From NCBI GenBank assembly GCA_047600485.1, contig JASGKS010000001.1:6592259-6656258 (forward strand): DNA of 64,000 nucleotides, given 5' to 3'. Below are positions 7,183-53,776 of the stretch, one piece after another. The position numbers and the translations under genes were made by a program. Source of the stretch: Archangium sp. (lineage in GTDB: Bacteria > Myxococcota > Myxococcia > Myxococcales > Myxococcaceae). Each line of letters opens with the position of its first letter. The stretch's first letter is position 1. The notes below the pieces were generated by a model, which saw only the letters and a list, made by a program, of their open reading frames with translations, was not told the origin of the DNA and made no database searches.

Positions 7183-7657
7183 ACTCGGCTTCCGCGCTGC
7201 TGAGGTTCGCGGTTGCACGCTCGAGCAGCAGAGCGCCGAGCGAATCACCGAGGCGTGTCGCGACGCCCCCGTCCGGAAAGTCGCCCGACACCCCGAAGAC
7301 GGTCGACCGTCCGGCGGCCAGCTCGTCGCTGCGGTAGCAAACGTACTGTGGGCCGCGTGAAGCGTAGACCCTGACCAGCGCGATGAGTCGGGGGTCGATG
7401 GCCGCGATTCGCTTCTCGGCCCTGTCCTGGTACGGGAGGTCCTCGCGCGGACCACCTCGAGCCAGTGGCCTGAGAAGCTCCCACGGAGTCAGCAGCGAGT
7501 CCGACGGCTCCGCGTCGTCGACTTCCATGTCTGCGATGACGAACGCTTCGACGGGAAACGGAACGCCGTAGCAGGCGAGCAGAATCTCCTCGTTCGACCG
7601 ACCCGCTTCGAGCATCGAGCGAGCCAGCTTCGCCTTCGATGCGAGATCCGCCGGCAT
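6926..7657 (-). CDS. Hypothetical protein; 3' boundary uncertain, overlaps the ankyrin gene
   Basis: Its ATG overlaps the upstream stop (TGATG), suggesting translational coupling. The first ~165 aa look protein-like and the tail is low-complexity, so a frameshift or fusion with the ankyrin gene is possible. Confidence 0.4.
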   Translation of the reverse strand: MPADLASKAKLARSMLEAGRSNEEILLACYGVPFPVEAFVIADMEVDDAEPSDSLLTPWELLRPLARGGPREDLPYQDRAEKRIAAIDPRLIALVRVYASRGPQYVCYRSDELAAGRSTVFGVSGDFPDGGVATRLGDSLGALLLERATANLSSAEAEYASPSNRGAGFDRSRRGRGRASEHGERRRPGRADRGTPCRKRETDQRVAVEAARTSEEPHRGGRVGRRREAAFAARRGRRHRSTR

Positions 7658-7959
7658 CAGTACCGCGGCGCTCCGGTGGTGCAGTCGAGTTCGACGCGCG
7701 TTCCGCCGACGCTCACTTCGGCGCTCGTGCTCGAGCGACTGACCTGGGCTTTTCCAGCTCGCGTCGAGACGTCGCTCAGCTTTCCGCTGAAGCCCGACAG
7801 ACACGCCGAGCGCGCGAGCCACATCGCCTGCGTGCGCGCGCTCGCGTCACGTCGCCCGGCGTCAGCGATGGAGAAGCGCGTGAGGAACACCGTCACGAGC
7901 GTGATGGCGACCACGATCGCCACCATCACCAGCAACAACACATGGCCGCGGCGTTTCAT
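7657..7959 (-). CDS. Small membrane protein in the pilus/T2SS-like operon
   Basis: N-terminal hydrophobic helix (MKRRGHVLLLVMVAIVVAITLVTVFL). Its ATG overlaps the upstream stop (ATGA). Confidence 0.5.
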   Translation of the reverse strand: MKRRGHVLLLVMVAIVVAITLVTVFLTRFSIADAGRRDASARTQAMWLARSACLSGFSGKLSDVSTRAGKAQVSRSSTSAEVSVGGTRVELDCTTGAPRY

Positions 7960-8327
7960 GGAATGAACACCTCGAAGGTCTGCGCCTGCGTCTCTGAATC
8001 GCGGAGCGTGAAGGCCACCGTCGCGCCGCTCGCGTTCTGTTCGAACTTCGTGACGTGACGCGCGAGCACCAACTCGGTGCCGCACGCCGAGCGCACGACC
8101 TTGTCTCCGTCGAGGCGATACGTCACCGCGCATTCCGGACGGGCCACGCGGTCGAGCTCACGCTGCTCCGAGAGCGTGCGAATCGACGACGCCGCTTCGA
8201 GCTGCCACAGCGCGCGGTCGTGACGCGCCTGCAACGTGCGGATGAAGAGGTAGCAGGCGGGAACGAGCAACGCCGAGATGGACAGACAGATGGCCAGCTC
8301 GACCGTGGTGAACGCGCGGCGCTTCAT
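7956..8327 (-). CDS. Minor pseudopilin (prepilin-type N-terminal methylation domain)
   Basis: MKRRA|FTTVELAICL prepilin class III motif with Glu at +5. Confidence 0.75.
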   Translation of the reverse strand: MKRRAFTTVELAICLSISALLVPACYLFIRTLQARHDRALWQLEAASSIRTLSEQRELDRVARPECAVTYRLDGDKVVRSACGTELVLARHVTKFEQNASGATVAFTLRDSETQAQTFEVFIP

Positions 8328-8692
8328 GGCGCACCCGGCTTTCTCAGGCCCGTGAGCGCGACCTCGAGCGGAGTGCCGCTGCGCGACTTCCAGCTCACGA
8401 GGAAGGTCACCGCGTTGGGCGTCGGTGCATTGCCGTCGATGAACTGCAGCTCGCGCACTTCGACGCCTGGGAGTCCGTCTTCGAGCTTCGCGCGCGTCGC
8501 GGCGTCGAGCGGCTTGCCCGTCGCCGCGGCGCGAATGAGCTCACCGGCGAACACTTCGGCGCGTGCGCGCTGTAGCTCTTCGAGTGCGCGTCGCTCCGAG
8601 ATGTTCGAGATGGCGTCGAAGAGCAGACCGCTGAGGCTCAGCGTCGCGACGCACACCATCAGCTCGACCAATGTCATTCCACGACGGTTCAC
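8324..8692 (-). CDS. Minor pseudopilin (prepilin-type N-terminal domain)
   Basis: MNRRG|MTLVELMVCV motif. Overlapping stop/start on both sides. Confidence 0.75.
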   Translation of the reverse strand: MNRRGMTLVELMVCVATLSLSGLLFDAISNISERRALEELQRARAEVFAGELIRAAATGKPLDAATRAKLEDGLPGVEVRELQFIDGNAPTPNAVTFLVSWKSRSGTPLEVALTGLRKPGAP

Positions 8693-9807
8693 GACACACC
8701 TCGCTTCAACGTGCCGCGCGGCTCGAGCTTCTCGGCGCCGACGCGTTGCAGTGACTGATGCAGCGTCGCGAGCAACGTCTTCTCGAGCACGGCGCGCTCC
8801 ACTCCAAGTTCCAACATGCGCTGCGTGGCTTCGTCGGGCGTGCCCGCATGAAGGCCCGCGAGCACCAATCGGCCGGTGTGTGCGGCGCGAACGGCGAGCT
8901 GCGCTTCGGCCGCGGTGCGGATTTCACCGACCGCGAGCACGTCGAGGTCCTGTCGCAGCGCCGCGACGAGCGCGCTCTCGGCGGTGAGGCCACGCTCGGG
9001 GCAGAGCTCGACCTGCGCGACGGGAATACCGGCGACGCGCAGGCGCTGCTCGACCGGGTCTTCGAGGCTCAGGTGCGCTCCACCGCGCTGCTTCGCGACG
9101 TGCGCGAGCGCGGCGTAGAGCGTGGTCGTCTTGCCGGCTCCGGAAGCGCCCGCGACGAGAATCAGGCCGTGCTTCGCGTCGAGCGCTTCACGCATTCCTT
9201 CGAGGACGGCGGTGTCGAAGCCCAGTTGCTCGAGCGTGAGAAGTTTGCCGAAGAGCCGCAGCGCGCCGCGCTCGCCGAGCGCCGTCGGGAGGAACGCGGT
9301 GCGGACGTCGGCGGCCACTCCGTCGCGTTGAATGCGGCCTTCTTGCGCGAGGTCGCGACGGTACGGGAGACAGCCGCTGACCTGCTTGAGCGCGGCGAGG
9401 AGCCGCTCGCCCGCAGCGCGCGGCAAAGTGGTGAAGGGCACGAGTTCACCGAAGCGGCGCAGGGAGACGGTGACGGTGTCGCGTGCGTCCGATTCGACGT
9501 GGACGTCGGATGCGCCGCTGCGCGAGGCCATGTCGATGAGCGAACGCACCGCGCGCACGGGAGACCAGGCGCCTGCGAGGTAGCGCGCGAAGGCGGCGCC
9601 GTCATCGGTGAGCACTCCGGTCGCGGGCGGCGGTGAGAGCGCAGCACGCGTGAGTTCAGCTGCGTCGCGCTGCAGTGCGTGACGCGCGCCGTTCTGGGTC
9701 AGCATCGCGCTGCCGTCGAGCGCGCTCACGTCATCGAAAGGAACGAATTCCTTCGCGAGGAAACGCGTGCGGACGACCAGACCTTCGACGTTGGTCGATG
9801 AGTTCAT
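8689..9807 (-). CDS. GspE/PilB-family secretion ATPase (short form, lacking the long N-terminal domain)
   Basis: Walker A GASGAGKTTTLYAAL, Asp box, Walker B DVLAVGEIR and His box LAGLHAG. At 372 aa it has only the C-terminal ATPase core. Confidence 0.9.
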   Translation of the reverse strand: MNSSTNVEGLVVRTRFLAKEFVPFDDVSALDGSAMLTQNGARHALQRDAAELTRAALSPPPATGVLTDDGAAFARYLAGAWSPVRAVRSLIDMASRSGASDVHVESDARDTVTVSLRRFGELVPFTTLPRAAGERLLAALKQVSGCLPYRRDLAQEGRIQRDGVAADVRTAFLPTALGERGALRLFGKLLTLEQLGFDTAVLEGMREALDAKHGLILVAGASGAGKTTTLYAALAHVAKQRGGAHLSLEDPVEQRLRVAGIPVAQVELCPERGLTAESALVAALRQDLDVLAVGEIRTAAEAQLAVRAAHTGRLVLAGLHAGTPDEATQRMLELGVERAVLEKTLLATLHQSLQRVGAEKLEPRGTLKRGVS

Positions 9808-9827
9808 GAGTGCCTCGAGAGAAAGAT

Positions 9828-10023
9828 CCCCTCTCCCTGTGAAACGGGGAGAGGGTCAGGGTGAGGGGCGGAGTCGAGCATCGCGGGCAGAGGACGGATC
9901 AGCCCCTCACCCCAGCCCTCTCCACGCGTCGCAAGGAGAGGGAGAGCGGCAGTCGTGCACGGAGTCAGAGGACGCATCAGCCCCTCACCCCAGCCCTCTC
10001 CCCGCTTCGCAAGGAGAGGGAGG
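9828..10023. repeat. Cluster of three palindromic repeat copies (one forward, two reverse, with ~78-bp tandem duplication)
   Basis: cccctctccctgtgaaacggggagagggtcagggtgagggg, then 2x cccctcaccccagccctctcc...aaggagaggga. It sits inside the operon between the ATPase and the GspF-like genes. Confidence 0.8.
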
Positions 10024-10851
10024 TCATGGGTCGATGGCCTTCAAGTACGTCGAGTAGAACGCCGCCGCGCTCGCGAGCAGCGAGATGGCCCCGAGCAACA
10101 AGCCGAACGCGCTCAGGCGCGCCGCGTCGCGACGAACTTCGTGCGGCAAGGTCGTCGCCTGCAACGCCGAGAACGCTTCGAGTGTGGTGATGCCCGCTCC
10201 CGCAGTGACGGTGGTCGCCAACAATCGCGACGTCAGCGCTCCGAGCAGCGGACTCACTGCCTCGGGCTGAACTGCTCCCGCTTCGAGGCCCTGTGCGAGT
10301 GAGAGCGCAGCGCTCTTCCCACGTGCGCTGCACACTTCGGCGCTCGCGCGCGCCGCCGCAGGGAGCGCGACGCCAGCTCGCACCAGCGCCACCGTGGCCG
10401 ACGAGAAAATCCACGCGTCGAGCGACTGCCACGCGGTGAGCACTCCGAGTGACCAGCGCTCACGCACCGCGACGGCGAGCACGAGGAAGAGCACCACCGA
10501 GACCGCCAGCGGCACGAAGAAGAACGAGACGGACACGATGTCGCCGCTCGGCAGCGAGCGCAGCGCAGGCGCGGTGAACAACGCGATGACCGCCGACGCG
10601 AGCGTCACCAACACCAGCGTCGTCGCAGGCCACACCAGCGCGGTGTTGAGCCGCGTGCGGTGCTCACGCGCCGTGCGGTCGAAGGCCATCATCGACTCGA
10701 GCACTGCGCGCGCGTCGGACGGCTTCGATGCGATGACGGCGCGCGCGAGGGAGAGGTCGACCTCTGCGTGCTGCATCACGCTTTCGGCGGGTTCTAAACG
10801 GCCGAGCGCGGCGAGCGCGGCGTCCAACCGTTTTGCTCGAGCGAGACTCAT
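10024..10851 (-). CDS. GspF/PilC-like polytopic membrane protein (single T2SSF-like domain)
   Basis: Soluble N-terminal region then 3-4 TM helices. Assigned from operon context and topology similar to TadB/C-like single-domain platform proteins. Confidence 0.55.
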   Translation of the reverse strand: MSLARAKRLDAALAALGRLEPAESVMQHAEVDLSLARAVIASKPSDARAVLESMMAFDRTAREHRTRLNTALVWPATTLVLVTLASAVIALFTAPALRSLPSGDIVSVSFFFVPLAVSVVLFLVLAVAVRERWSLGVLTAWQSLDAWIFSSATVALVRAGVALPAAARASAEVCSARGKSAALSLAQGLEAGAVQPEAVSPLLGALTSRLLATTVTAGAGITTLEAFSALQATTLPHEVRRDAARLSAFGLLLGAISLLASAAAFYSTYLKAIDP

Positions 10852-10891
10852 GCGACCTCCGTAGTTTCACCCTCACCCCGACCGTTGGCGC

Positions 10892-11677
10892 TCACATGGC
10901 CCCCATCGGAAGCTGCGCGAGCGTGGCGTAGACCGCCGCCAACATCCCCAGCGCGTTGAGCGTCAGCACCGACAGACTCACCACTCGCGCCGTCACCACG
11001 AAGCGCTGCAGCTTCACCTCCGCCGCCGCGATGCACCGCGCGCGCACGACGTCGAGGTCGACCGCGTCGAGCGAACCGTCTCCGAGCCACTTCTGCTTCG
11101 AGAAGAAAGCCAGCCGCACGTCATCGGGCGCGCCGCTCTCGAGCAACGCCGCTCCGAGCGCGGCCTGCTTCGCGCGTTCCAACTCACGACCCCAGCCCGG
11201 CAACCTGCGCCAGCCGAGCGCGCCGGCGGCGAGCCACGCGAAGAGCGGAATGGTCAACACCAGGAACACCGTCGCCAGCGAATCGGCGAGCCCGAGGTAC
11301 GGAAGCTCGCGGTCCTTCGCCATCTCGAAGAACACCGGCAGCACCTTGTTTCGCAGCGCCGTGCCGACGAACAACTGCACCGCGGCGATGAAGAACACGT
11401 ACGCGCCGGTCTGCGCCACGTGCAGCCCCGACGCGAAGCCACCGGGAATTTCCTCGAGCCGCCGTAGCGTCGGCGCGAGCACTTTGGGCCAGCGCTCGGT
11501 GACGTCGACGACCTCATTGCTCACGCGCAGCGACGTGAGCACCTCGCGCACCTTCCCGCTCTGCGCCGCCGAGTGCAGAAACCCGATGCCCTTCACGTCG
11601 CTCAGCCCGTCCGCCAACGGCAACCCGCGCTCGAGGGAATCGGCAATCAACACCGTCGCAGCATCGTTGGGCGTCAC
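10892..11677 (-). CDS. GspF/PilC-like polytopic membrane protein (single T2SSF-like domain)
   Basis: Topology and context. The start overlaps the upstream stop (ATGA). Confidence 0.5.
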   Translation of the reverse strand: MTPNDAATVLIADSLERGLPLADGLSDVKGIGFLHSAAQSGKVREVLTSLRVSNEVVDVTERWPKVLAPTLRRLEEIPGGFASGLHVAQTGAYVFFIAAVQLFVGTALRNKVLPVFFEMAKDRELPYLGLADSLATVFLVLTIPLFAWLAAGALGWRRLPGWGRELERAKQAALGAALLESGAPDDVRLAFFSKQKWLGDGSLDAVDLDVVRARCIAAAEVKLQRFVVTARVVSLSVLTLNALGMLAAVYATLAQLPMGAM

Positions 11678-12510
11678 TTGACGTTCCCCGCGATGGAGAA
11701 GATCGGCAGGTACAGCGCAATCAGCACCACGCCGACGCTCAGCACTCCGGCCGCGGCGAGCGCGAGCGACGCGAACACGCGATACGTCTCCACGCGTCGA
11801 CGGCCTTCGAGCATCAACCGCGCCGCGAGGTTCGCGGTGACGACCGGCGTCTCGGCAGGCGCGTGGCGCTTCGACAACGCGACGAGCAAGCCGCGCTCCG
11901 CTTCTCCGAGCTTGAAGGTGCGCAGGCGTTCGAGCGGAGCAGCCTGCGTCGCCGCTCCGAAGAGACCGCGCGCCGCTTCGAGACTTCCGGCGCCGTACAC
12001 CGGCACCCGCAGGCGCGAGAAGAGCAGCACCGCGAAAATCGCGAGCGGGATTCCGATGATGCGCATCACCGACGCGAGCTCGTAGAGCAGCTGCGTCGGC
12101 ATCGGGAGCGTGCCGGCAAGCTGCGCGAGGGCCTGACCGTTGCCGGCGAACAAACCCACCAGCGCGAGCAACACGAACGGCCCGGCGAGCCCGACCTGCA
12201 ACACGCGACGACCGGCGATACGGGCTTGCTCCAGCTCGAGCGACGCCTCGAACGAGCGCGCGAGGTGCTCGGCGCGCTTCACGTCGTCGTCGCGCGACGC
12301 GAGCACGCGCACGAAGTCGTCGGTCACTTCGGCGGTGGTCGGTGCCTGCAACAGCAGCGCGGCCTCTTTGCAGCCCGCACGCGCCGCGCCTTCAGGGAGC
12401 GCATCGACGAGCCGATTCACGGCGTCGAGCGAGCTGATTCCCGAGCGGCGCAGCGCGATGAACTGTTGCAGGACGAGGGCGCGCGCTTCAGCGTCGGTGG
12501 GAGCGCTCAC
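11674..12510 (-). CDS. GspF/PilC-like platform protein
   Basis: The C-terminal LYLPIFSIAGNV matches the conserved GspF/PilC C-terminal motif (PIF..G), and the TM topology fits. Confidence 0.7.
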   Translation of the reverse strand: MSAPTDAEARALVLQQFIALRRSGISSLDAVNRLVDALPEGAARAGCKEAALLLQAPTTAEVTDDFVRVLASRDDDVKRAEHLARSFEASLELEQARIAGRRVLQVGLAGPFVLLALVGLFAGNGQALAQLAGTLPMPTQLLYELASVMRIIGIPLAIFAVLLFSRLRVPVYGAGSLEAARGLFGAATQAAPLERLRTFKLGEAERGLLVALSKRHAPAETPVVTANLAARLMLEGRRRVETYRVFASLALAAAGVLSVGVVLIALYLPIFSIAGNVK

Positions 12511-12938
12511 TCCAACGCCTCACGAATGGTGAGCGCTCCGGTGCGGCCGTCCCAGCGGTAGTCAGACGTGACGCCGTCGCCGTCGAGGTCACCTTCCGCG
12601 ATGGCGGTGAAGCTGCCGTCCTTCACTTCGACCGAGTAGCGGAAGCGCACCTCGCCCTGCGGAGCGACACCGAGCGATTTCCAACAGTCGGACACCGCGA
12701 ACGGCGTCGCCTTCTTCGGCACCTCGCCCGTCGCGGGGCACGCGAGGAAGGCGCCCGTGTCGCGCCAGTGTCGGAGTTCCTGATGCGCGATGGCCGCGAG
12801 AATGGCGTGCGCTTCGTCCGCACGCGCGCGGCGAATCAGCGCTTCACCGGTGGGCACCGTGATGGAGACGACGATGCCCATCACTGCGAGCACGAACGCC
12901 AGCTCGGCGATCGTGAAACCGCGGGCGCTACGACGCAT
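12507..12938 (-). CDS. Major (pseudo)pilin, type IV pilin-like
   Basis: MRRSARG|FTIAELAFVLAVMGIVV: prepilin peptidase site, Glu+5 and a hydrophobic alpha1 helix. 143 aa, first gene of the operon. Confidence 0.8.
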   Translation of the reverse strand: MRRSARGFTIAELAFVLAVMGIVVSITVPTGEALIRRARADEAHAILAAIAHQELRHWRDTGAFLACPATGEVPKKATPFAVSDCWKSLGVAPQGEVRFRYSVEVKDGSFTAIAEGDLDGDGVTSDYRWDGRTGALTIREALE

Positions 12939-12960
12939 GAGTGTTCCCCTCCGAGCAAAC

Positions 12961-13001
12961 CCCCTCTCCCGCGAGGGAGAGGGTTGGGGTGAGGGTGGAC
13001 C
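12961..13001. repeat. Palindromic repeat element copy
   Basis: cccctctcccgcgagggagagggttggggtgagggtggacc, in the 5' UTR/promoter region of the pilin operon. Confidence 0.8.
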
Positions 13002-13020: not shown

Positions 13021-14790
13021 TCAGCGACGGCGTCGCATCAGTCCGAGCAACATCAGCAACGGGAACGCGAGCGTCACTTCAGACGTGCAGCCGCAGCCGC
13101 TGGTGCCCTTGAGCCCACCACCGCCACCGCCACCGCCGGTGATTCCACCGCCGCCGGTGATGCCTGAGCCGCCGCCAGCTGCCGAGCCGCCACCCGTTCC
13201 GCTTCCGCCACCCGAGCCCGCGTCAGAGCCGCTACCGCCGCCGGTCGCCGAGCCACCGCCGGTCGCGCCACCGCCACCACCAGTCGCGCCGCCGCCACCG
13301 CCCATGCCCGCGTCCTGGCGAGGAGGACGTCCGCCGCCACCGCCGGTCGCGCCGCCACCGCCGCCAGTCGTGCCGCCGCCACCGCCAGTCGCACCGCCGC
13401 CACCGCCGGTCGCACCGCCGCCACCGCCGGTCGCTCCACCGCCACCGCCCGTCGCACCGCCGCCACCGCCCGTCGCACCGCCGCCACCGCCGGTCGCTCC
13501 GCCGCCGCCGCCCATGGGGCCGACGCCCGCGTCCCAGCTCACGTTGATGTTCAGCGAACCGACCGTCACGCACTCACCGCCGACCACCAGCGAATCGGTC
13601 GAGAAGTTCCACTCGCGGAAGGTCACGTTGCTCAGCGAGCCGACGTACTGACCGGCGAGCTCATCTTGCGTGACGGAGGTGACGGTCACGCTGCCCGACT
13701 GCGCGAGGAAGCGCTTCTGGCAGGTCATCGTGTTGCAGCGCCGCCGCATCATTGGGCACACCTCGCAGCTCGCGAAGTCGGTGGTGGCGTCGAACATCAC
13801 CGTGGTCGGCAGCATCAGCCCGAAGCCGAGGTAGGTCTCGACGGTGAGGAAATCCATCCCACCGTCGGCGGTCGCCGGAGGCTGCGTGTAGAAGTCGACG
13901 AACCCGAACTCGTCGATCGAGTCGTAACCCGCCGACGCGTTGGTGGTCGGCCAGCTCGCGAGCATCAAGCACGACGCGTCCATGCCCGAGCCCGCGTCGA
14001 CACCCGAGCCCGCATCGACACCCGAGTCAGGACGGCCCGCGTCGACGCCCGAGTCGGGGCGGCCCGCGTCCGTCACTCCGGCGTCGGAGCCCGTGCCGCC
14101 GTCGCTGCCGCTGCAGTTGTTGCGCGTGCTGCCGGCGTTGCGCGGGTTCGCTGAAATCACCGTGAAGTCGTTCGAGTTGTTGTCGGTCTCGGTGCAGCCA
14201 TTGCCGTTGCGCACTTCGACCGCCGCTGCGTTCAGCGCCGCCGCCGCGACCGCTTCGCTGCAGTTCGCGGTGCCGTAGCCGATGAAGTCGACGATGTTCG
14301 CTCCGGTGGGGCACGCGCCGCTCAGACCGGTGGAGTTGTTCACCAGCGCGACCTTCCCGTTGATGGCCGACATCGCGATGTTGTCGACCACGTCAGGCGT
14401 GACGGGCAACGCCGCGCCCATGCCGGTCGTCGTCTGCTCAGCGACGAGGAGATACTGGCCGGGCTGAATGGTGACGTTGGGCAGCGTGGTCGGGTTCCAC
14501 GAGGTGCCGGTCGCTCCGGCGTACTGCACCGACCAGCCGTTGACGTTGACCGCCACGCTGCCGCGGTTGAAGAGCTCGATGTAGTCGGTGTTCCAGATGG
14601 CCGTGCCGTTGCCGCCGCCGCCGTAGACCTGGCTGATGACGATGCCGCTCGAGAGCGCGTCGCGGCGGTTGATGACGTCGGCGTTGCCGCGCTTGCGACC
14701 CCACGGCTGCTCTTCGCCACCGCACGCGAAGTAGAGAATCGAGGCGACGGCTGCGACAGCGACGAGGCGAAGCGAACGGGAGTTCTTCAT
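13021..14790 (-). CDS. Secreted lipoprotein with lamin-tail domain (LTD), Gly-rich repeats and MYXO-CTERM sorting signal
   Basis: Signal/lipobox (ILYFAC), LTD signature (VISQVYGGGGNGTAIWNTDYIELFN...NGWSVQY), DAGRPDSGV repeats and (GGGGGAT)n repeats. It ends GCGCTSEVTLAFPLLMLLGLMRRRR, i.e. MYXO-CTERM-like. Confidence 0.8.
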   Translation of the reverse strand: MKNSRSLRLVAVAAVASILYFACGGEEQPWGRKRGNADVINRRDALSSGIVISQVYGGGGNGTAIWNTDYIELFNRGSVAVNVNGWSVQYAGATGTSWNPTTLPNVTIQPGQYLLVAEQTTTGMGAALPVTPDVVDNIAMSAINGKVALVNNSTGLSGACPTGANIVDFIGYGTANCSEAVAAAALNAAAVEVRNGNGCTETDNNSNDFTVISANPRNAGSTRNNCSGSDGGTGSDAGVTDAGRPDSGVDAGRPDSGVDAGSGVDAGSGMDASCLMLASWPTTNASAGYDSIDEFGFVDFYTQPPATADGGMDFLTVETYLGFGLMLPTTVMFDATTDFASCEVCPMMRRRCNTMTCQKRFLAQSGSVTVTSVTQDELAGQYVGSLSNVTFREWNFSTDSLVVGGECVTVGSLNINVSWDAGVGPMGGGGGATGGGGGATGGGGGATGGGGGATGGGGGATGGGGGATGGGGGTTGGGGGATGGGGGRPPRQDAGMGGGGGATGGGGGATGGGSATGGGSGSDAGSGGGSGTGGGSAAGGGSGITGGGGITGGGGGGGGLKGTSGCGCTSEVTLAFPLLMLLGLMRRRR

Positions 14791-14867
14791 GCGGGCGGCG
14801 TGCTTGTCACACGTGCGCATGGCTGATCAATCCCACGCGCGAAAAGCCCCGCGTTCGACGAAAACTC

Positions 14868-15989: not shown

Positions 15990-16090
15990 GACCGGAGTTG
16001 TCCGCCCGGCCGCACGCCACGACTTTCGCGCGAACTGTCAAAGCAGCAGACAGATCAGCCGCATTTCCACCGCCCATTTCCGAGCGAATT

Positions 16091-17707
16091 TCAGGGCGGT
16101 GCGCCCGACAGAATCCACGCGCGCACGGTGTCGAGCTCCGCGGTGGTGAGGCCGCCGCCGGCCTTCGGCATCTGCGAGCCGAAGCACATGCCGCTGCCGG
16201 TGAGCTTGTTGAGCAGGTAGCTGTTGCTCAAGTCGTTGGGCACCACGCGCTTGCGGTTGGTGCACTGGCCCGAGGTGACGTTCACCAGGTTGGCGTAGCC
16301 CGTCGTCGCCGACGAGAGGTTGAGGCCTTCCGCCGGTCGAGCGCCACCATGACAACCGGAACCCGAGCACGAGTTCCGCACCCAGATGGGGTTCACGTCG
16401 GTCGCGTACGAACGCGGCGTGACGGCGCAGGTGCCCGAGGCGCTGCAGCTCGAGCCGCCGGGGCACGCGCCGCAGCTGCCACCACAACCGTCGCTGCCGC
16501 ACTGCTTGCCGCTGCAGCTCGGACTGCACCCGCACGTTCCTGCCGCGGAGCAACTTTGACCCGACATGCAGGTGCCGCACGAACCTCCGCAGCCGTCGTC
16601 GCCGCACACCTTCCCGACGCACGACGGCGTGCAGCCACACGCGCCCGCCGTGCTGCAGGTCAGCCCGCCCGCGCACGTTCCACACGAGCCTCCGCAACCA
16701 TCGGGCCCGCACGCCTTGCCCGCGCAGTCGGGCACGCACGCGCACGCGCCGGCGCCATTGCAGACCAGCGGCGCAGTGCAGGTTCCGCAGGAACCACCGC
16801 AGCCATCGTCACCACAGGTGCGGCCGGTGCAGCTGGGCGTGCAGGTCGCTCCGCAGCGCCCCGTCTGCGAGTTGCACGTCAGCATTCCCGCGCAGCTGCC
16901 GCACGAGCCGCCGCACCCATCGGGGCCGCACTGCCGCCCGGTGCAGCTGGGCGTGCACACGCACGCGCCGCTCGCATTGCACGTCTGTGGCGCTGCGCAC
17001 GCGCCGCAACTTCCGCCGCACCCGTCGGGCCCGCACGTCTTCCCCGAGCACGCGGGCAAGCACACGCACTGCCCGCTCGCACCACACACCCCGCTGGAAC
17101 AGACGCCGCAGCTTCCCCCGCACCCGTCGGCACCGCAGCTGCGCCCTGAACACTGCGCGGTGCACACGCACTGCCCGGTCGCGTTGCAGCTCGTGGTGCT
17201 GGCGCAGGTGCCGCAGGTGCCTCCGCAGCCGTCGCTGCCGCACGCACGACCCAGACAATCGGGCGTGCACGAGGTCGACGGCTGGCATTGGCCCGCGGCG
17301 GTGCAGTTGTCGCCGGGAGCGCACGCGCCGCAGCTGCCTCCACAGCCGTCGTCACCGCACGCACGGCCACTGCACGCCGCCACGCAGCTCGAGCTCGCGA
17401 GCGTCGTGAGGTGCGCGTCGAGCAGCGACTTCTCGCAGGCCTGCAGGCCGCCCGGAGGCATGGTGCCGTCGTCGAACACGCGCACGCGAATGCGCGACAT
17501 CCAGCGGCGCACGTCGGCGTCGGTGTCAAAGTCGACGCCGTCGGTGGCGCCCGCACGCGCCGCTCCGGTGACTTTGACCGAGTGACAGGTCAAACAGTTG
17601 CGGGTGATGACCTCGCGGCCATCGGCTGAGGGGCACGCGGTGCTCACGACCTGACCGGGACACCCCGAGAGGAGTGCCGCGGCCAGAAGGGCGGTGAGCG
17701 CGCGCAC
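16091..17707 (-). CDS. Lipoprotein with N- and C-terminal PSCyt1-like (CxxCH) modules flanking nine tandem 8-Cys repeats
   Basis: LLSGC lipobox and NCLTCH. Nine repeats of C-x-G-[KR]-x-CG-x-DGCGG[ST]CG-x-C...C..G.C.C.P[SD]. C-terminal SGCHGG...MPKAGGGLTTAELDTVRAWILSGAP. The ORF starts at 17752; an internal start near 17707 is preferred to avoid overlap. Confidence 0.7.
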   Translation of the reverse strand: MRALTALLAAALLSGCPGQVVSTACPSADGREVITRNCLTCHSVKVTGAARAGATDGVDFDTDADVRRWMSRIRVRVFDDGTMPPGGLQACEKSLLDAHLTTLASSSCVAACSGRACGDDGCGGSCGACAPGDNCTAAGQCQPSTSCTPDCLGRACGSDGCGGTCGTCASTTSCNATGQCVCTAQCSGRSCGADGCGGSCGVCSSGVCGASGQCVCLPACSGKTCGPDGCGGSCGACAAPQTCNASGACVCTPSCTGRQCGPDGCGGSCGSCAGMLTCNSQTGRCGATCTPSCTGRTCGDDGCGGSCGTCTAPLVCNGAGACACVPDCAGKACGPDGCGGSCGTCAGGLTCSTAGACGCTPSCVGKVCGDDGCGGSCGTCMSGQSCSAAGTCGCSPSCSGKQCGSDGCGGSCGACPGGSSCSASGTCAVTPRSYATDVNPIWVRNSCSGSGCHGGARPAEGLNLSSATTGYANLVNVTSGQCTNRKRVVPNDLSNSYLLNKLTGSGMCFGSQMPKAGGGLTTAELDTVRAWILSGAPP

Positions 17708-21974: not shown

Positions 21975-22014
21975 CTCCCTCTCCCCCGCAGGGGAGAGGG
22001 TCGGGGAGAGGGCC
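21975..22014. repeat. Palindromic repeat; left arm of a perfect 40-bp inverted-repeat pair
   Basis: ctccctctcccccgcaggggagagggtcggggagagggcc is identical to the reverse complement of 22805-22846. Confidence 0.85.
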
Positions 22015-22804: not shown

Positions 22805-22846
22805 GGCCCTCTCCCCGACCCTCTCCCCTGCGGGGGAGAGGGAGAG
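22805..22846. repeat. Palindromic repeat; right arm of the 40-bp inverted-repeat pair
   Basis: Reverse complement equals 21975-22014 exactly. Confidence 0.85.
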
Positions 22847-40829: not shown

Positions 40830-41411
40830 TCAGTCGGCGGCCCACGGGCTGCTGGTCGACGTGACCTTCTGCAGTTCCCACGCGGCGAGCGCGTCGACGC
40901 AGCGATCGAGCTCGCTGTTGAGCGCGCGCGCACGTTTGCTGGCCAGGTATTCCTTCGCGAACGCCTCGAGGCGAACTCCGAGGAACAAGCGCGCGAGCGT
41001 CACTTCGCTCTGCTCGAAGAACTCGACGAAGCGCAGCGCCATGCCGCTGCGCGCGTTGGGATCTCTCGGGTTCGCCTGATCAACGCGAATGATCTGCGCA
41101 CGGGCGAGCACGGGATCTTCCGCGGGGTCGAGCGCGAAGCTGCAGCGCACCTCGGTCCCCACCGGCAGGAAGAACGTCGACGAGAGAAACGCCCCACTCA
41201 CCGACACGTTCCCCGAGCGCAACGTGGCCTCGAAGCTCAGGTCCTCTCCGTCGCCGACCCACAGACGAAACGGCACCGTCATCTGCGCGCGCGGAAACTG
41301 GCGATGCTCGGGCCCGTCGTGGTTCGAGTCGAGCTGCGGCTTCGCGAAGGTCGACTTGCCTGCGGGAAGCTTCGACGGCGGAGGAGGTGCCGGCTTCTTG
41401 GTGGTCGCCAT
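40830..41411 (-). CDS. PilZ-domain protein (putative c-di-GMP receptor)
   Basis: RxxxR (HRQFPRA) ... D/NxSxxG (NVSVSGAF) PilZ signature. The upstream ORF extension was rejected. Confidence 0.7.
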   Translation of the reverse strand: MATTKKPAPPPPSKLPAGKSTFAKPQLDSNHDGPEHRQFPRAQMTVPFRLWVGDGEDLSFEATLRSGNVSVSGAFLSSTFFLPVGTEVRCSFALDPAEDPVLARAQIIRVDQANPRDPNARSGMALRFVEFFEQSEVTLARLFLGVRLEAFAKEYLASKRARALNSELDRCVDALAAWELQKVTSTSSPWAAD

Positions 41412-41430
41412 GGCCGGCAACCCTAGCGAG

Positions 41431-42528
41431 TCACTTCGCGAACGAACCGAGAATCGTGCACGCCAGACAGAGCGCCACCAGCGCAGCGATGACGATGCCC
41501 ACCACCTTGAGCGTGTTGTTCGGTGCGGCGCTCGCAGGCGAAGCAGGAGGCGCGGAGGGAGCCGCGGGCTGCGAGGGCCCGACCCAACCCGAAGGCGGCG
41601 GTGGAGCGCTCGTGGCTGCGACGCCACCAGCACCAGGCCGCGCGAGCACCTGCTGATACGCGGCCGGCTTCACGCTGACCGACAACATCCACCGATTGCG
41701 AACTCGCCCGGGATGCGGGTCCGAGCGGCACACGCCTTCTTGCGTCATGTCGACGGTGTTCGCGTCGCCGTTGCCGATGGCCACTCCGACCCACGAGCCG
41801 GGGCCGAAGCCCACGCCGCCCGGGTTCTTGTCCTCGAAGTACGTCAGGCTGCTGATGCTCTCGCGCTTCGGAAAGCCGATGACGAGCGCCGACTTCCCCG
41901 CGCGCGCGGCGACGATGCGGCCCGTGCGCTCGACGGCGAGAGCTCCGAAGGGAGACTCGAACGAGACGAAGATGTCGAGGCCAGTGAGGTCAGCCTTCAC
42001 GTTCTTCACGTGCGTGCCGGCGATGACGAGCCAGCACGGCCCCAGCGGGTTCCAATACGCGAGCGTCGCCTTCGCCGGTTGATCAATCGCCAGCGAGCGC
42101 ACCTCAGTCGCGCCAGGCAGCTCGAACAGCTTGAGCACGCCCTGCCCGTTCACCACGACCGCCTGTCTTCCATCGCCGGAAAACGCAGCGTGCACCGCAT
42201 CGGGCACGTTCAAGGTCGTCGCTTCGAACATCACGCCTTGCGCGGTGACGATGGCGAGCGCTCCGCTCGACGTGAGCACGATGTCGCGCGCGCCCTCGAC
42301 GGTCTGCGAAGACAGCTTCTCGCCGTTCTTCAGCGCGAGTTCGAGAATCACGCCGCCTTCGCACAGCGCGTGCACGCGGTCGGCGCTCATCACCACCTGC
42401 AACACCTTCGACGGAGCAGGCGTCAGCCACGTGGGCCCCTGATCAGCCGAGTCGTACCCGAGCACGAGGTTCTCATCGGCGGTGACGAACACCGGCGCCG
42501 TCGCATGCCACGCAAAGGGAGCGGTCAT
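41431..42528 (-). CDS. Hypothetical C-terminally membrane-anchored protein
   Basis: Pro/Ala-rich linker and a C-terminal TM (VVGIVIAALVALCLACTILG). Immediately upstream of PilZ. Confidence 0.5.
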   Translation of the reverse strand: MTAPFAWHATAPVFVTADENLVLGYDSADQGPTWLTPAPSKVLQVVMSADRVHALCEGGVILELALKNGEKLSSQTVEGARDIVLTSSGALAIVTAQGVMFEATTLNVPDAVHAAFSGDGRQAVVVNGQGVLKLFELPGATEVRSLAIDQPAKATLAYWNPLGPCWLVIAGTHVKNVKADLTGLDIFVSFESPFGALAVERTGRIVAARAGKSALVIGFPKRESISSLTYFEDKNPGGVGFGPGSWVGVAIGNGDANTVDMTQEGVCRSDPHPGRVRNRWMLSVSVKPAAYQQVLARPGAGGVAATSAPPPPSGWVGPSQPAAPSAPPASPASAAPNNTLKVVGIVIAALVALCLACTILGSFAK

Positions 42529-47028: not shown

Positions 47029-47072
47029 TCCCTCTCCCTGCAAAGCGGGGAGAGGGCCGGGGTGAGGGGCCG
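47029..47072. repeat. Palindromic repeat element copy
   Basis: ctccctctccctgcaaagcggggagagggccggggtgaggggcc. Confidence 0.8.
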
Positions 47073-50389: not shown

Positions 50390-51112
50390 CTAGCCTGCCA
50401 GCTGGCGCACGATCGCTGAATAGGCACGAATCTCCTCAGCAACCAACGAGCGACGATTGCGAAACCGGATCAAGATCTCTTTGATTGCTCGCGTTGCCGC
50501 TGGCGAACGATTCGCGACCTGCGTTGCGACGGCCCGCGCGTGACTCATCAACTGGTCCTCCTTGAGGACTGCATTGACTAAGCCAGCCTGAACGCCCTCC
50601 TCTGCCGTGAACCGACGCCCAGTGAGCAAGATCTCGGCACCGCGAAGAACTCCCATTCGCTCAAGCGCCAAGAACGATCCACCCATCCCAGGAATAATGC
50701 CAAGCGACAACTCCGGCTGCGAAAACCACGCTCCGTGTGCAGCGAAGACGAGATCTGACGCGAGCACCATTTCGCAACCACCGCCAACCGCCGGACCATT
50801 TACGGCGGCAATGAGCGGCACGGGCACTCTCTGAAGCTCACGCGCGAGTTGTTCAAAAGCCCGATGCGCATGAATCCATTCTTTGCTTGTCTGAGACGCC
50901 CGCTCGGATCGGTCGGCTCCAGAACAGAAGGCCCGGCCCTCGGCACTTAGGATCACAGCCCGTGCACTCCGGTCACGGCGCAGGCGGGATAGAAAACTGC
51001 ACACCGTCCGACACATCTGAACCGAGAGCGCGTTGCGAACGGAAGGCCGATTGAGTCTAATTTCTGCAACGCCCTCAGATGGCCAAGTCAGAATCGCGAG
51101 TTCGTTCGTCAT
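50390..51112 (-). CDS. Enoyl-CoA hydratase/isomerase (crotonase)-family protein
   Basis: Crotonase fold motifs (AAVNGPAVGGGCEM; FSQPELSLGIIPGMGG). Reduced GC. Confidence 0.85.
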   Translation of the reverse strand: MTNELAILTWPSEGVAEIRLNRPSVRNALSVQMCRTVCSFLSRLRRDRSARAVILSAEGRAFCSGADRSERASQTSKEWIHAHRAFEQLARELQRVPVPLIAAVNGPAVGGGCEMVLASDLVFAAHGAWFSQPELSLGIIPGMGGSFLALERMGVLRGAEILLTGRRFTAEEGVQAGLVNAVLKEDQLMSHARAVATQVANRSPAATRAIKEILIRFRNRRSLVAEEIRAYSAIVRQLAG

Positions 51113-51960
51113 TATCTTGCCCCAATCGCTAGCACGACAGCTCCAGCCAAAATCATAGTGGCGCCCAACGCGAGCGGTATTGAGGGCCGCTCTTTGAGCA
51201 AGAAGACACCTAAGACGACGTTGAGCAAGATGCTCGATCGCTTCAACGCGACAACGTAGCCTGTAGTTGCCTCAGGACGCTCAAGTGCCAAGACCATAAA
51301 AAGCAAGGATCCCGCTGCCGCAACTCCGACACTCAAAAGTGAAGGTGAAAAGACAGAAGACCGCCGAATTTCAATTCGCGCAAGAAAGATTGACGCAACT
51401 ACTAAACTAGCGACAGCCAAAAATCCCACCAAGCATCGACTTCGTGCGACTTCTTTCAATAGGAGCCCGTCGATGGCCCACATCATCGCGATGCCGATCC
51501 CCGCCCCCATCCATTGTCCACGTGGAATCTCGCGCTTTTCTTGCTGATGACGACCGAGCACAAATGTACCCAAAGCCACAACACCACATCCGATCGTCAG
51601 GGATGAGTCATAGAGCGATGTTCCGCGAAGGAGTTCAATCGTCACGACAAAGACAATGGATGTTCCAAGAAGTGGGGTCACGACAGAGACGCCGGCGTCG
51701 CGAATAGTTTTCGTAAGAAGATGATTCGAGGCTAACTCGAGGACTACATGCGCAACAAGGAGAAGCGGGAGTTCAGCGATATCTCGAAAAGACTCTTTCC
51801 GAGCAATCGCAACAACAAAGTAGACCAGTGAAGCCGTCGCAAACATCACACCATTAATTTGGCGTTGAGGAAAACCCTCGGACGCACGCTTATTCAAGCC
51901 ATTGCGAGCGGCGTCAAATACAGCACTTAGCACTGCCAACAAAACCCAAACAGACATCAC
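51112..51960 (-). CDS. EamA/DMT-superfamily transporter
   Basis: 10 TM helices with duplicated EamA halves. Low GC. Confidence 0.8.
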   Translation of the reverse strand: MMSVWVLLAVLSAVFDAARNGLNKRASEGFPQRQINGVMFATASLVYFVVAIARKESFRDIAELPLLLVAHVVLELASNHLLTKTIRDAGVSVVTPLLGTSIVFVVTIELLRGTSLYDSSLTIGCGVVALGTFVLGRHQQEKREIPRGQWMGAGIGIAMMWAIDGLLLKEVARSRCLVGFLAVASLVVASIFLARIEIRRSSVFSPSLLSVGVAAAGSLLFMVLALERPEATTGYVVALKRSSILLNVVLGVFLLKERPSIPLALGATMILAGAVVLAIGAR

Positions 51961-53045
51961 GCCACCGCGCGATGCAATGCATGAACAAGCGTCGGCCCGT
52001 CCAACTCTCCAAGGTAATCAATAATAATTCGCGTTGAGTCTCGAACGACCGAATGAGCGAGTTGCTTATCGAATGCGCGACCGGGACTACTCAAACGCCA
52101 AAGATATTCAATTCTCGAGGTCAGCGCTCCACCAAAGGTGAGCAGTTGACCCGGCACAATTCTAATCGAACGGCGGATCATCTGTTCGGCAAGCATCTGT
52201 GCCGCCTCCCGGTCAACCGGAAGCGAGTTGTTGTGCGCAAGAAGGAATGTCGCACCAGAGGGAATTCGAACCAAGTCGGAATTCTCGAACTCATTGCCAA
52301 TAGTGGTGGCGATTACCACTCCCCCGCGCTCAAGACACTCCGCCGAGAATTTCCCCGGAACTGACGGCAAAATATCAGGTTGCGCATCAGTAAACGCAAG
52401 ATCGGCGACAGCAAGTTCGACGCTCCGGCTGCGGAGCTCGCGAACGACGTCGGCACCGAGCGCTCCAGCGGCACCAACAACCACGGCTTGGCGAGTGTCT
52501 GGCGCCAATCTGTCTAGCGCGGCAATGACACCAGTCGCTGTGTACGATGACTTACCCCCGCACCCCCCTTTTTCTCGTGCAATGCCCAACACGTGCTCCG
52601 TGTGCCGGTGAAGTATGTCAGCAACACGGGCGAAGCGCCCAAAGTCCGGAGTGAGCTTCAGGATACCGCCCATTGCATTAAGTCTTGAGCCGATTGTTGC
52701 GAAGAGTTCATCGGCGATGGCTGTGAAACTTGGATTCGCCGGGTCTCTGAGAATCAAGTCAAACTCATTCGTCTTCGCACGAATTACGCACCTTCCACCT
52801 CCAACGCGAGAGCTATGCAGACCGGGCACCGAGGCAACTGACAATCGGCCCACTGCGATGTTGATTAGGCGGTTCTTGATTGCGCTCTCAAAAGAGGCGA
52901 GCGAGCGCACCGTCGCATCGGCCTCTTCGTCCGAGCATCTCGCATCAACAAGGCGCGTGCCACCATAGTGGTACACCACATCACTTCGTCCCTCATGAGC
53001 CAGCCATACGGAAGCGATGCGTGTGTCAAACATTTCTACTTCCAT
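51957..53045 (-). CDS. Glu/Leu/Phe/Val-dehydrogenase-family-like protein (atypical GGGR in place of GGGK)
   Basis: YGGTRLV ... EADATVRSLA ... RVGGGRCVI resembles the ELFV-DH N-domain, followed by a VVVGAAGALGADVV Rossmann fold. Confidence 0.55.
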   Translation of the reverse strand: MEVEMFDTRIASVWLAHEGRSDVVYHYGGTRLVDARCSDEEADATVRSLASFESAIKNRLINIAVGRLSVASVPGLHSSRVGGGRCVIRAKTNEFDLILRDPANPSFTAIADELFATIGSRLNAMGGILKLTPDFGRFARVADILHRHTEHVLGIAREKGGCGGKSSYTATGVIAALDRLAPDTRQAVVVGAAGALGADVVRELRSRSVELAVADLAFTDAQPDILPSVPGKFSAECLERGGVVIATTIGNEFENSDLVRIPSGATFLLAHNNSLPVDREAAQMLAEQMIRRSIRIVPGQLLTFGGALTSRIEYLWRLSSPGRAFDKQLAHSVVRDSTRIIIDYLGELDGPTLVHALHRAVA

Positions 53046-53776
53046 TCACTGCCTCCTTCAGAAATCGCGAGAAGCGCAGAGATGATTGCCCGACGAGCCC
53101 CTCGAAACGAGTCGATCGATCGAAGATATGTTCGTGCGCTCTCGTCCGCGGCATCATCGCTGACAATCTTTACACACGCAAAAGGAATGCCGAACCGAGA
53201 ACACGTCTGCGCAACGGCAGACGCCTCCATGTCGAGTGCAATTGCGTCCAATGAGATTCCCGCCCGAATGCTCTCACGGGCCGCAGTTGAAGCGACGAAC
53301 TTGTCGCCAGACAGGAGCAGTCCTCCGTACGAAATCGAGGCGACATTCGACAATGAAGACTTAACAATCTGCGCGAGCTTGATGTTTGCGCTAAACACAA
53401 GATCGCGATGATCGGACATTGCCTGATATTGAAGAGTGCGCTCTCCAGGGCGCGCCAGCCACGTTACGGAAGGAGAGATTCCGCCGAAGTCATGTTGGGC
53501 AAACGTCGTAGGAATCAGAATCGAGCCTACCTGGTGCTTTTCCGTGAGCGCCGCGCAGTATCCGAAATTCAGAACACATCGAAGATCAGAAGCCCCAGCC
53601 GCGAATGCGATGGCTGAGGCCGCTGCAACCTTGCCAACGCCGCTCAGCACAATGCACGACCGGGTCGGAATTGCATCTCGCTCGGGCGCGGTACGAAGAT
53701 CAACAACGCGAATCGATCCGGGCAGGTCCACCCCATCGAGTTCCTCGCGCATGGCCACCTGAATTATGGAGGTCAT
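53036..53776 (-). CDS. PNP_UDP-family nucleosidase (MTA/SAH-nucleosidase-like)
   Basis: ALDMEASAVAQTC...FACVKIVSD matches the MTAN EMEGAA...RxISD core. Confidence 0.7.
   Translation of the reverse strand: MTSIIQVAMREELDGVDLPGSIRVVDLRTAPERDAIPTRSCIVLSGVGKVAAASAIAFAAGASDLRCVLNFGYCAALTEKHQVGSILIPTTFAQHDFGGISPSVTWLARPGERTLQYQAMSDHRDLVFSANIKLAQIVKSSLSNVASISYGGLLLSGDKFVASTAARESIRAGISLDAIALDMEASAVAQTCSRFGIPFACVKIVSDDAADESARTYLRSIDSFRGARRAIISALLAISEGGSEWK

Follow-up and report, generated by a model that had tools for sequence, protein, structure and literature searches.

A conserved eight-gene type IV filament cassette of uncultured Myxococcota with three putative miniature platform paralogues

The stretch of DNA analysed here (64,000 nucleotides, GC ~68%; hereafter the window) comes from contig JASGKS010000001.1 of an Archangium sp. 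assembly (GCA_047600485.1), and on the minus strand of its positions 7657-12938 eight co-directional open reading frames (ORFs) can be read from the sequence. Their content supports a minimal type IV filament (TFF) operon, as proposed in a preliminary description made from the letters alone: an ATPase matching T2SSE, homologues of the GspF/PilC platform protein and class III prepilins are all present. The genes, in the order of transcription, are as follows.

12507-12938, minus strand: major type IV pilin, 143 aa, class III signal peptide RG↓FTIAEL
11674-12510, minus strand: F1, miniature PilC/GspF platform paralogue, 278 aa, C-terminal end LYLPIFSIAGNVK
10892-11677, minus strand: F2, probable miniature platform paralogue and the most divergent of the three, 261 aa
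10024-10851, minus strand: F3, miniature platform paralogue, 275 aa
8689-9807, minus strand: short GspE/PilB-class assembly ATPase, 372 aa, N2 domain and catalytic core
8324-8692, minus strand: minor pilin m1, 122 aa, RG↓MTLVEL
7956-8327, minus strand: minor pilin m2, 123 aa, RRA↓FTTVEL, with Ala at -1 and Glu5
7657-7959, minus strand: m3, GspK/PilX-like pilin-class protein, 100 aa, MKRRGHVLLLV, no Glu5

Direct reading of the ORFs and their junctions bears out the gene order and protein sizes given in the preliminary description, as well as its remark that most junctions are 4-nt overlaps. Five of the seven are of this kind, with the sequence GTGA or ATGA (pilin/F1, F1/F2, ATPase/m1, m1/m2 and m2/m3), the other two being a 40-nt gap between F2 and F3, inside which GGAGG occurs, and a 216-nt gap between F3 and the ATPase gene. 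A 158-aa ORF (7657-8133) was considered for m3 and rejected as over-extended; the start is placed at 7959 (MKRRGHV) because of the ATGA overlap with m2 and because orthologues measure 102-104 aa. Two of the products, F1 and the ATPase, have identical counterparts in a metagenome-assembled genome (MAG) at NCBI (Archangium sp., locus tags QM817_30105/30100), and an exact-protein look-up of F1 returned no record. Scans for sigma-70 promoters and for terminators gave nothing above background, and no Rfam family matched anywhere in the window.

The ATPase matches Pfam T2SSE (PF00437) with an E-value of 6.9e-50 (170 bits, cut-off 24.9). Among the NCBIfam models GspE (178 bits) ranks above PilB (166) and ComGA (156), with PilT (104) far behind and TadA (19) farther still, which places the protein in the GspE/PilB class, with all scores lying far under the equivalog cut-offs. 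For GspE (TIGR02533) the 178 bits compare with a cut-off of 630, and since only positions 110-381 of the 486 in the model are covered, the N1 domain and the C-terminal region are missing while N2 and the catalytic core are present. The earlier statement that this is a short GspE/PilB-type ATPase without the N-terminal domains thus holds for N1. The N1 domain of GspE/PilB ATPases normally docks to GspL/PilM, and its loss fits the locus because GspL/PilM are not found here. Across 43 family members there is no variation in the Walker A motif (GASGAGKTT), the Asp box (EDPVE), the Walker B Glu (GEIR) or the His-box region; TGR replaces the first His-box TGH in the family. Most family members end in a C-terminal four-Cys knuckle, CxxC-x5-6-CxxCxGxGR, perhaps a remnant of the Zn site of GspE, that has been lost from the window ATPase and its closest relatives (371-372 aa), the window protein carrying no Cys motif. 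Residues 1-30 hold a conserved family motif, EGLxLRxxWxxxEFVPFDE, that has no counterpart in the GspE, PilB or ComGA models and is a candidate docking element for the miniature platform. A homologue search at E<=1e-20 gave more than 600 sequences, and the best 120 listed are proteins of 309-399 aa with 54-79% identity; where sources are named, they are Myxococcota, Myxococcales, Archangium, or the older delta-/Proteobacteria labels.

The assignment of F1, F2 and F3 to the platform family is less direct. The T2SSF hidden Markov models (HMMs) of Pfam and NCBIfam matched none of the three at E<=1, whereas profiles built from the families themselves recover the homology. The one NCBIfam signal, from NF052606, covers the last 20 residues of F1 only (21.5 bits, cut-off 700); these match myxobacterial PilC, in line with the earlier recognition of LYLPIFSIAG as a canonical C-terminus. 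Pairwise BLASTP among F1, F2 and F3 gave nothing significant, phmmer with F1 alone found no match among PDB sequences, and a word-index homologue search, dominated by Ala/Leu-rich words, returned only F1 itself and, for an 18-sequence alignment of F2, seven proteins. In a Foldseek comparison of the F1 model with the PDB, which lacks a good full-length platform structure, 3jc8_Ca came third (E 0.55). An exhaustive HMMER search with F1 yielded 48 representative relatives, of which 44 measure 254-299 aa; it matched no canonical 400-aa GspF. The family profile of F1 nevertheless matches PilC of Myxococcus xanthus at E=3.8e-14 (F1 residues 11-161 and 236-272 on PilC 84-254 and 381-417, respectively), and EpsF at 0.017. 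From the family alignment an AlphaFold2 (AF2) model of F1 with a pLDDT of 94 and a pTM of 0.86 was obtained.

Profile-profile comparison with hhalign used family alignments from the related loci described below and a canonical profile made of Escherichia coli HofC and 12 PilC-type ORFs. F1 aligned to the canonical profile with a probability of 95.5% (E 1.4e-8; F1 15-277 on HofC 65-396) and F3 with 91.3% (E 9.5e-7; F3 10-266 on HofC 98-386); reversed and column-shuffled control queries reached at most 6.7%. The F3 HMM in addition matches canonical PilC ORFs at 1.4e-5, and two F3 orthologues carry a precomputed, faint T2SSF match. On this basis F1 and F3 are firmly identified as GspF/PilC platform homologues. 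F2 is a probable one: it reaches only 9% against the canonical profile alone, and 85.9% against F3 over 161 columns, ~86-90% against the F1 C-terminus, and 95.6% (E 1.2e-8; F2 85-253) against a merged profile of F1, F3 and the canonical sequences. Only the part of F2 from the first to the third transmembrane segment (TM1 to TM3) aligns significantly, its AF2 model (seven sequences, pLDDT 76) has the same helix order as F1, and one divergent F2 orthologue keeps the C-terminus YLPISTIAQ. The three proteins are alike in length, in helix order and in their three-TM topology, and the earlier proposal of three platform-type membrane proteins is upheld by these profiles and folds, firmly for F1 and F3 and with a lesser certainty for F2.

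The same alignments correct the description of these proteins as single-domain. F1 and F3 are collinear, in shortened form, with the whole HofC/PilC core (Cyto1-TM1-TM2-Cyto2-TM3) and, because the alignments span both cytoplasmic repeats and all three TMs, each corresponds to one PilC equivalent. In both, the dispensable N-domain is missing and the cytoplasmic repeats are shortened, though not in the same way: in F1, Cyto1 is complete, Cyto2 is trimmed and the canonical C-terminal LYLPIFSIAG is retained, whereas in F3 it is Cyto1 that is trimmed and Cyto2 that is near complete. Canonical platforms have a pore motif consisting of Tyr-Pro in TM1 and Glu-Pro in TM3 (PMC10790770). Allowing for an alignment that may be off by one or two residues, the TM1 Tyr/Trp-Pro is kept by F3 only, F2 keeping the Tyr; at the canonical TM3 Glu position F3 has Gln, Glu, His or Ser, F2 has an invariant Arg (R231, at the start of TM3), and F1 has Ala-Pro in the place of Glu-Pro.

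Four prepilin-like proteins complete the operon. The major pilin, m1 and m2 have class III signal peptides of the form G/A↓(F/M)T..E with Glu5 and match N_methyl and GFxxxE models, and m1 and m2 are the two pseudopilins of the preliminary description. The family profile of the major pilin finds M. xanthus PilA at 1.1e-10, gonococcal pilin at 2.6e-10 and GspG only at 0.002. Near the C-terminus this protein has an invariant DLDxDG loop, accompanied by two conserved Cys; DLDxDG is a DxDxDG calcium-binding-type motif, the alpha1 helix nonetheless being T4a-like, and it recalls the Ca-dependent stability of GspG pseudopilins. The minor pilin m1 matches N_methyl at 4e-5 and XpsI (GspI) at 0.0013, its family profile matching pilin N-termini (alpha1) only; m2, which gives weak matches to pilin N-termini (alpha1) only, is kept in all cassettes. 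The last gene had been listed simply as a small membrane protein, and such a gene is present, but its product m3 is itself a GspK-like protein of the pilin class: it resembles the N-terminus of GspK (0.0027) and has a conserved motif, QALWLARSA, its family profile finding no match among PDB sequences.

From context look-ups and two collection scans, 16 independent complete cassettes were assembled, including that of the window and drawn from Myxococcota MAGs and metagenomes, together with many partial ones (loci L001 and L009 represent one cassette). The order pilin-F1-F2-F3-ATPase-m1-m2-m3 is the same in all 16, each of which has exactly one F1, one F2, one F3 and only one ATPase, and most of the junctions overlap by 4 nt. 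Compared with the proteins of the window, the ATPases are 51-77% identical, the pilins 41-73% and the F1-F3 proteins 26-61%. An ATPase scan of genome contigs gave three close 'Archangium sp.' MAG loci and one unrelated match. The flanking genes, on the other hand, differ in every locus examined. Pfam scans of ~46 further ORFs across the window detected neither a secretin nor a prepilin peptidase, and no GspC/L/M or PilM-Q either, as the preliminary description had noted, and the flanks of six independent loci gave no Pfam match to a secretin, prepilin peptidase, PilMNOP or GspC/L/M; nor was a PilT retraction ATPase found in the window or the related loci. Since the same cassette recurs with unrelated flanks, it is mobile, or at least an autonomous conserved module. 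A fragment of a standard T4aP/T2SS locus (type IVa pilus and type II secretion system, respectively), which the preliminary description had raised as the reading that would overturn its own, is thereby ruled out, and a decaying relic is ruled out by the eight intact ORFs, the invariant catalytic motifs and the order that stays fixed at 51-77% ATPase identity. At one related locus (L006) a second ATPase (T2SSE), fused to a cNMP-binding domain, is encoded ~6 kb downstream of the cassette (16060-17194, minus strand), and toxin-antitoxin genes (ParE, PIN) lie between the two.

Our preferred reading, to which we assign a probability of roughly 0.55, is that the locus is an autonomous eight-gene TFF assembly module of uncultured Myxococcota, with a heterotrimeric platform made of the three paralogues and with an assembly-only filament as its product. 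Prepilins need a PilD-type peptidase, and since the operon has four of them and no such enzyme was found here, a prepilin peptidase encoded elsewhere would presumably cleave the four proteins. Among the components by which TFF membership is recognised, the ATPase, a GspF/PilC platform protein and class III subunits were all found, and a prepilin peptidase was found neither in the window nor in the six loci; the 'generic' TFF model treats the peptidase as non-essential in the locus (PMC6668835). After cleavage m1, m2 and the Glu5-less m3 may form a priming tip complex. Glu5-less proteins of the GspK/PilX type cap priming complexes of the I/J/K type. Beneath this tip the 143-aa pilin would polymerise, driven by a hexamer of the short GspE/PilB-class ATPase; in known systems a hexamer of this class drives assembly through the platform, and without an N1 docking domain the ATPase must engage the platform directly. 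Because neither a retraction ATPase nor a dedicated secretin accompanies the cassette, what it most likely makes is a short filament or an endopilus of the assembly-only kind, whose passage through the outer membrane, if any, would depend on the secretin of another system.

As to the platform, translational coupling would yield F1, F2 and F3 at 1:1:1, and a heterotrimer, the counterpart of the PulF/PilC homotrimer, is the most likely assembly of the three. That they are the subunits of one trimer is suggested by their being co-translated, always co-occurring paralogues of full architecture, together with the trimeric state of known platforms. PulF has been described as a trimer from cysteine cross-linking, modelling and molecular dynamics, TadB/TadC have been proposed to form a trimer of heterodimers (PMC10790770), and CpaG/CpaH have been modelled as a C3 trimer of heterodimers inside the ATPase pore (PMC12019362). 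One may go further and suppose that the cassette is a new TFF family whose platform is an obligate asymmetric heterotrimer of specialised mini-PilC paralogues, building a secretin-free periplasmic endopilus in diderm Myxococcota; we hold this only tentatively and consider it doubtful as a whole. The specialisation would lie in complementary degeneration, by which F1 retains an intact Cyto1 and F3 an intact Cyto2, and in the differing pore residues, and the broken C3 symmetry could order subunit insertion, e.g. by providing one docking site per minor pilin at tip assembly. Several points weigh against the preferred reading, whether or not it is extended in this way. All carriers of the cassette are MAGs or metagenome contigs; the absence of a peptidase and a secretin covers the 64-kb window and the flanks of the related loci; and as the canonical channel residues are only partly kept, the complex may not work like PulF.

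Other explanations can be set against the heterotrimeric module. The eight genes could serve a standard T2SS or T4aP at another site of the genome as an accessory module in the inner membrane, adding a second kind of filament and motor to the GspD/PilQ, alignment complex and PilD already in place, and would then be one part of a split canonical system. Indeed the peptidase, and any secretin that may be used, have to be supplied from outside, none being present in the window, the pilin alpha1 helix is T4a-like, and T4aP systems are commonly multi-locus (PMC6668835). However, the ATPase lacks N1, the very domain for docking to GspL/PilM, the eight proteins are far from the canonical models with all NCBIfam scores well under cut-off, and the flanks are unrelated at every locus examined, so that we regard this explanation as unlikely. 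Rather less probable is a platform that does not combine the three paralogues, F1-F3 being alternative platforms or only one of them being the platform, with F2, for instance, an analogue of GspL/M or PilN/O. Against it stand the common length, helix order and topology of the three, the F2-F3 match of 86% over 161 columns and the 95.6% of F2 with the merged profile at clean controls, the constant presence, fixed order and translational coupling of all three genes, and the trimeric nature of known platforms (PMC10790770).

A DNA-uptake pseudopilus of the Com type is an improbable candidate as well. The cassette would then be the diderm analogue of comGA-GG, forming a periplasmic structure that pulls in DNA. 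Its gene content does parallel that of ComG, a retraction ATPase and a secretin are missing from the cassette, and the ATPase aligns with the ComGA model from end to end (residues 89-353 on positions 2-264 of 267), but at 156 bits the score is far under the ComGA cut-off of 300 and below those for GspE and PilB. Moreover, there are three platform genes here in place of one ComGB, the major pilin (~136 aa when mature, with its Ca-loop motif) is unlike ComGC, and Pfam matches to ComEA, ComEC and DprA are absent from the flanks examined.

The construction of a GspF/PilC platform, and the way in which a hexameric ATPase is coupled through it to the insertion of pilins, remain questions in TFF biology, and the trimer model rests on modelling and on the cross-linking of one protein, PulF. 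A conserved system encoding exactly three distinct, coupled platform paralogues would be independent, evolutionary evidence for a three-subunit platform. Since the three subunits are genetically distinguishable, each position could be mutated, tagged or cross-linked separately, which is impossible in a homotrimer, and the small parts (F proteins of ~270 aa, an ATPase of 372 and minor pilins of 100-123), combined with the lack of an alignment complex and secretin, make the cassette an attractive minimal target for reconstitution or cryo-electron microscopy. Its chief value may be that it lends the trimeric platform support from nature and offers a minimal model in which this platform can be dissected. 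Full-text literature searches turned up neither a bacterial TFF operon with three platform paralogues nor a heterotrimeric full-length platform, but only archaeal PilB/PilC paralogue pairs and the Tad system; the eight-gene pilus-assembly module with a three-paralogue platform is apparently undescribed, and the cassette might stand for a new TFF family. For the generic TFF finder of Denise et al. the platform has to be one that HMMs can detect (PMC6668835), and because F1-F3 escape the Pfam T2SSF HMM, profile-based finders of this kind would probably miss the cassette. Surveys based on HMMs can miss whole TFF families, Pfam T2SSF being blind to F1-F3.

The 216-nt spacer between F3 and the ATPase gene is occupied by elements resembling repetitive extragenic palindromic (REP) sequences, which recur elsewhere in the window.

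9808-10023, no strand assigned: REP-like palindrome cluster (three copies) in the F3/ATPase spacer, from repeat calls
12958-12998, no strand assigned: one REP-like element, a variant copy, in the 82 nt of spacer that precede the pilin gene, CCCTCACCCCAACCCTCTCCCTCGCGGGAGAGGGGG
21977-22000, 22819-22842 and 47030-47056, no strand assigned: exact REP-like copies outside the operon, intergenic

Within the cluster a palindromic unit occurs three times (9829-9872, 9899-9942 and 9977-10020), built as CCCTCTCC-N(6-15)-GGAGAGGG and often with a GGGGTGAGGG-type arm. The core motif has six exact copies in the window, all of them intergenic, against 0 expected, and the cluster has a predicted RNA fold of -130 kcal/mol (z=-6.7). 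Three palindromic repeats inserted between the ATPase and platform genes had been noticed before; the block measures 216 bp and is absent from the closest orthologous cassettes, in which F3 and the ATPase gene overlap by 4 nt (L009, L010) or are separated by 9 nt (L011). It follows that the dispersed element was inserted here in this lineage specifically. The block does not belong to the machine, but translation of the ATPase may be affected by it, and the dispersed palindrome looks like a genome-wide family of the MAG of the REP or bacterial interspersed mosaic element (BIME) type. Directly upstream of the operon (13021-14820, minus strand) lies the gene for a 599-aa protein with a lamin-tail domain, long glycine-rich GGGGAT(G) repeats and a C-terminal tail (GCGC, a hydrophobic stretch and RRRR) resembling MYXO-CTERM; it is not conserved beside the cassette in other loci. 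A PilZ-domain protein is encoded ~30 kb from the cassette (40830-41633, minus strand). Farther away, positions 50390-55890 (minus strand) form a low-GC island (52-57% as against ~68%) of five co-directional genes, for an enoyl-CoA hydratase, an EamA transporter, a protein of unknown function, a PNP_UDP_1 phosphorylase and a patatin-like phospholipase-ABC_sub_bind fusion, which may be a horizontally acquired operon.

Compared with the known filament systems, the cassette shares parts with several. In the T2SS the nearest part is the inner-membrane core, GspE-GspF-GspG/H/I/J/K (Klebsiella Pul, Vibrio Eps). However, the cassette is without GspD and GspC/L/M, its ATPase is without the N1 domain and the C-terminal Zn region that GspE possesses, three miniature paralogues take the place of one 400-aa GspF, m3 has 100 aa as compared with ~330 for GspK, and the profile of the major pilin is nearer to T4a pilins than to GspG. 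To the T4aP (PilA-PilB-PilC-PilMNOPQ-PilT, as in Myxococcus xanthus) it is tied by PilC and PilA, the best matches of the F1 and pilin profiles, and by the signature LYLPIFSIAG that F1 shares with the C-terminus of PilC. Here the differences are the lack of PilMNOPQ, PilT and a PilY1-type adhesin, an ATPase ~200 aa shorter than PilB, and again the platform, which in the T4aP is a single ~400-aa PilC with two T2SSF domains rather than three paralogues of 261-278 aa.

The Tad/Flp (type IVc) system is the only well-known bacterial one with a multi-gene platform modelled as a hetero-oligomer, TadB/TadC (PMC10790770, PMC12019362). TadB and TadC have one T2SSF repeat each and arose by fission (PMC6668835), whereas F1 and F3 of the cassette span both repeats. 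The ATPase is moreover not TadA-like (19 bits), the pilins, at 100-143 aa, are not of the Flp type, and genes for RcpA and TadZ/D/G are lacking; a Tad-like reading is ruled out by the ATPase class, the pilins and the F1/F3 alignments over both repeats. The ComG system of monoderms (ComGA-ComGG) resembles the cassette in being a compact single operon that combines a short, N1-less ATPase and a platform with a major pilin and several minor ones, lacks a secretin and depends on a peptidase from another locus, and ComGB, too, has been proposed to be a trimer (PMC10790770). It differs in belonging to monoderms, the cassette host being a diderm, in having one platform gene instead of three, and in gene order, the cassette having the pilin first and the ATPase in the middle; ComGC and ComGE matches in the cassette are confined to the N-terminal helix (E 0.005-0.2), with no com context. 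In sum, the cassette belongs to none of the T2SS, T4aP, Com and Tad systems by the tests for each of them, and by analogy it would work as the inner-membrane core does in machines of the T2SS, T4aP or Com type.

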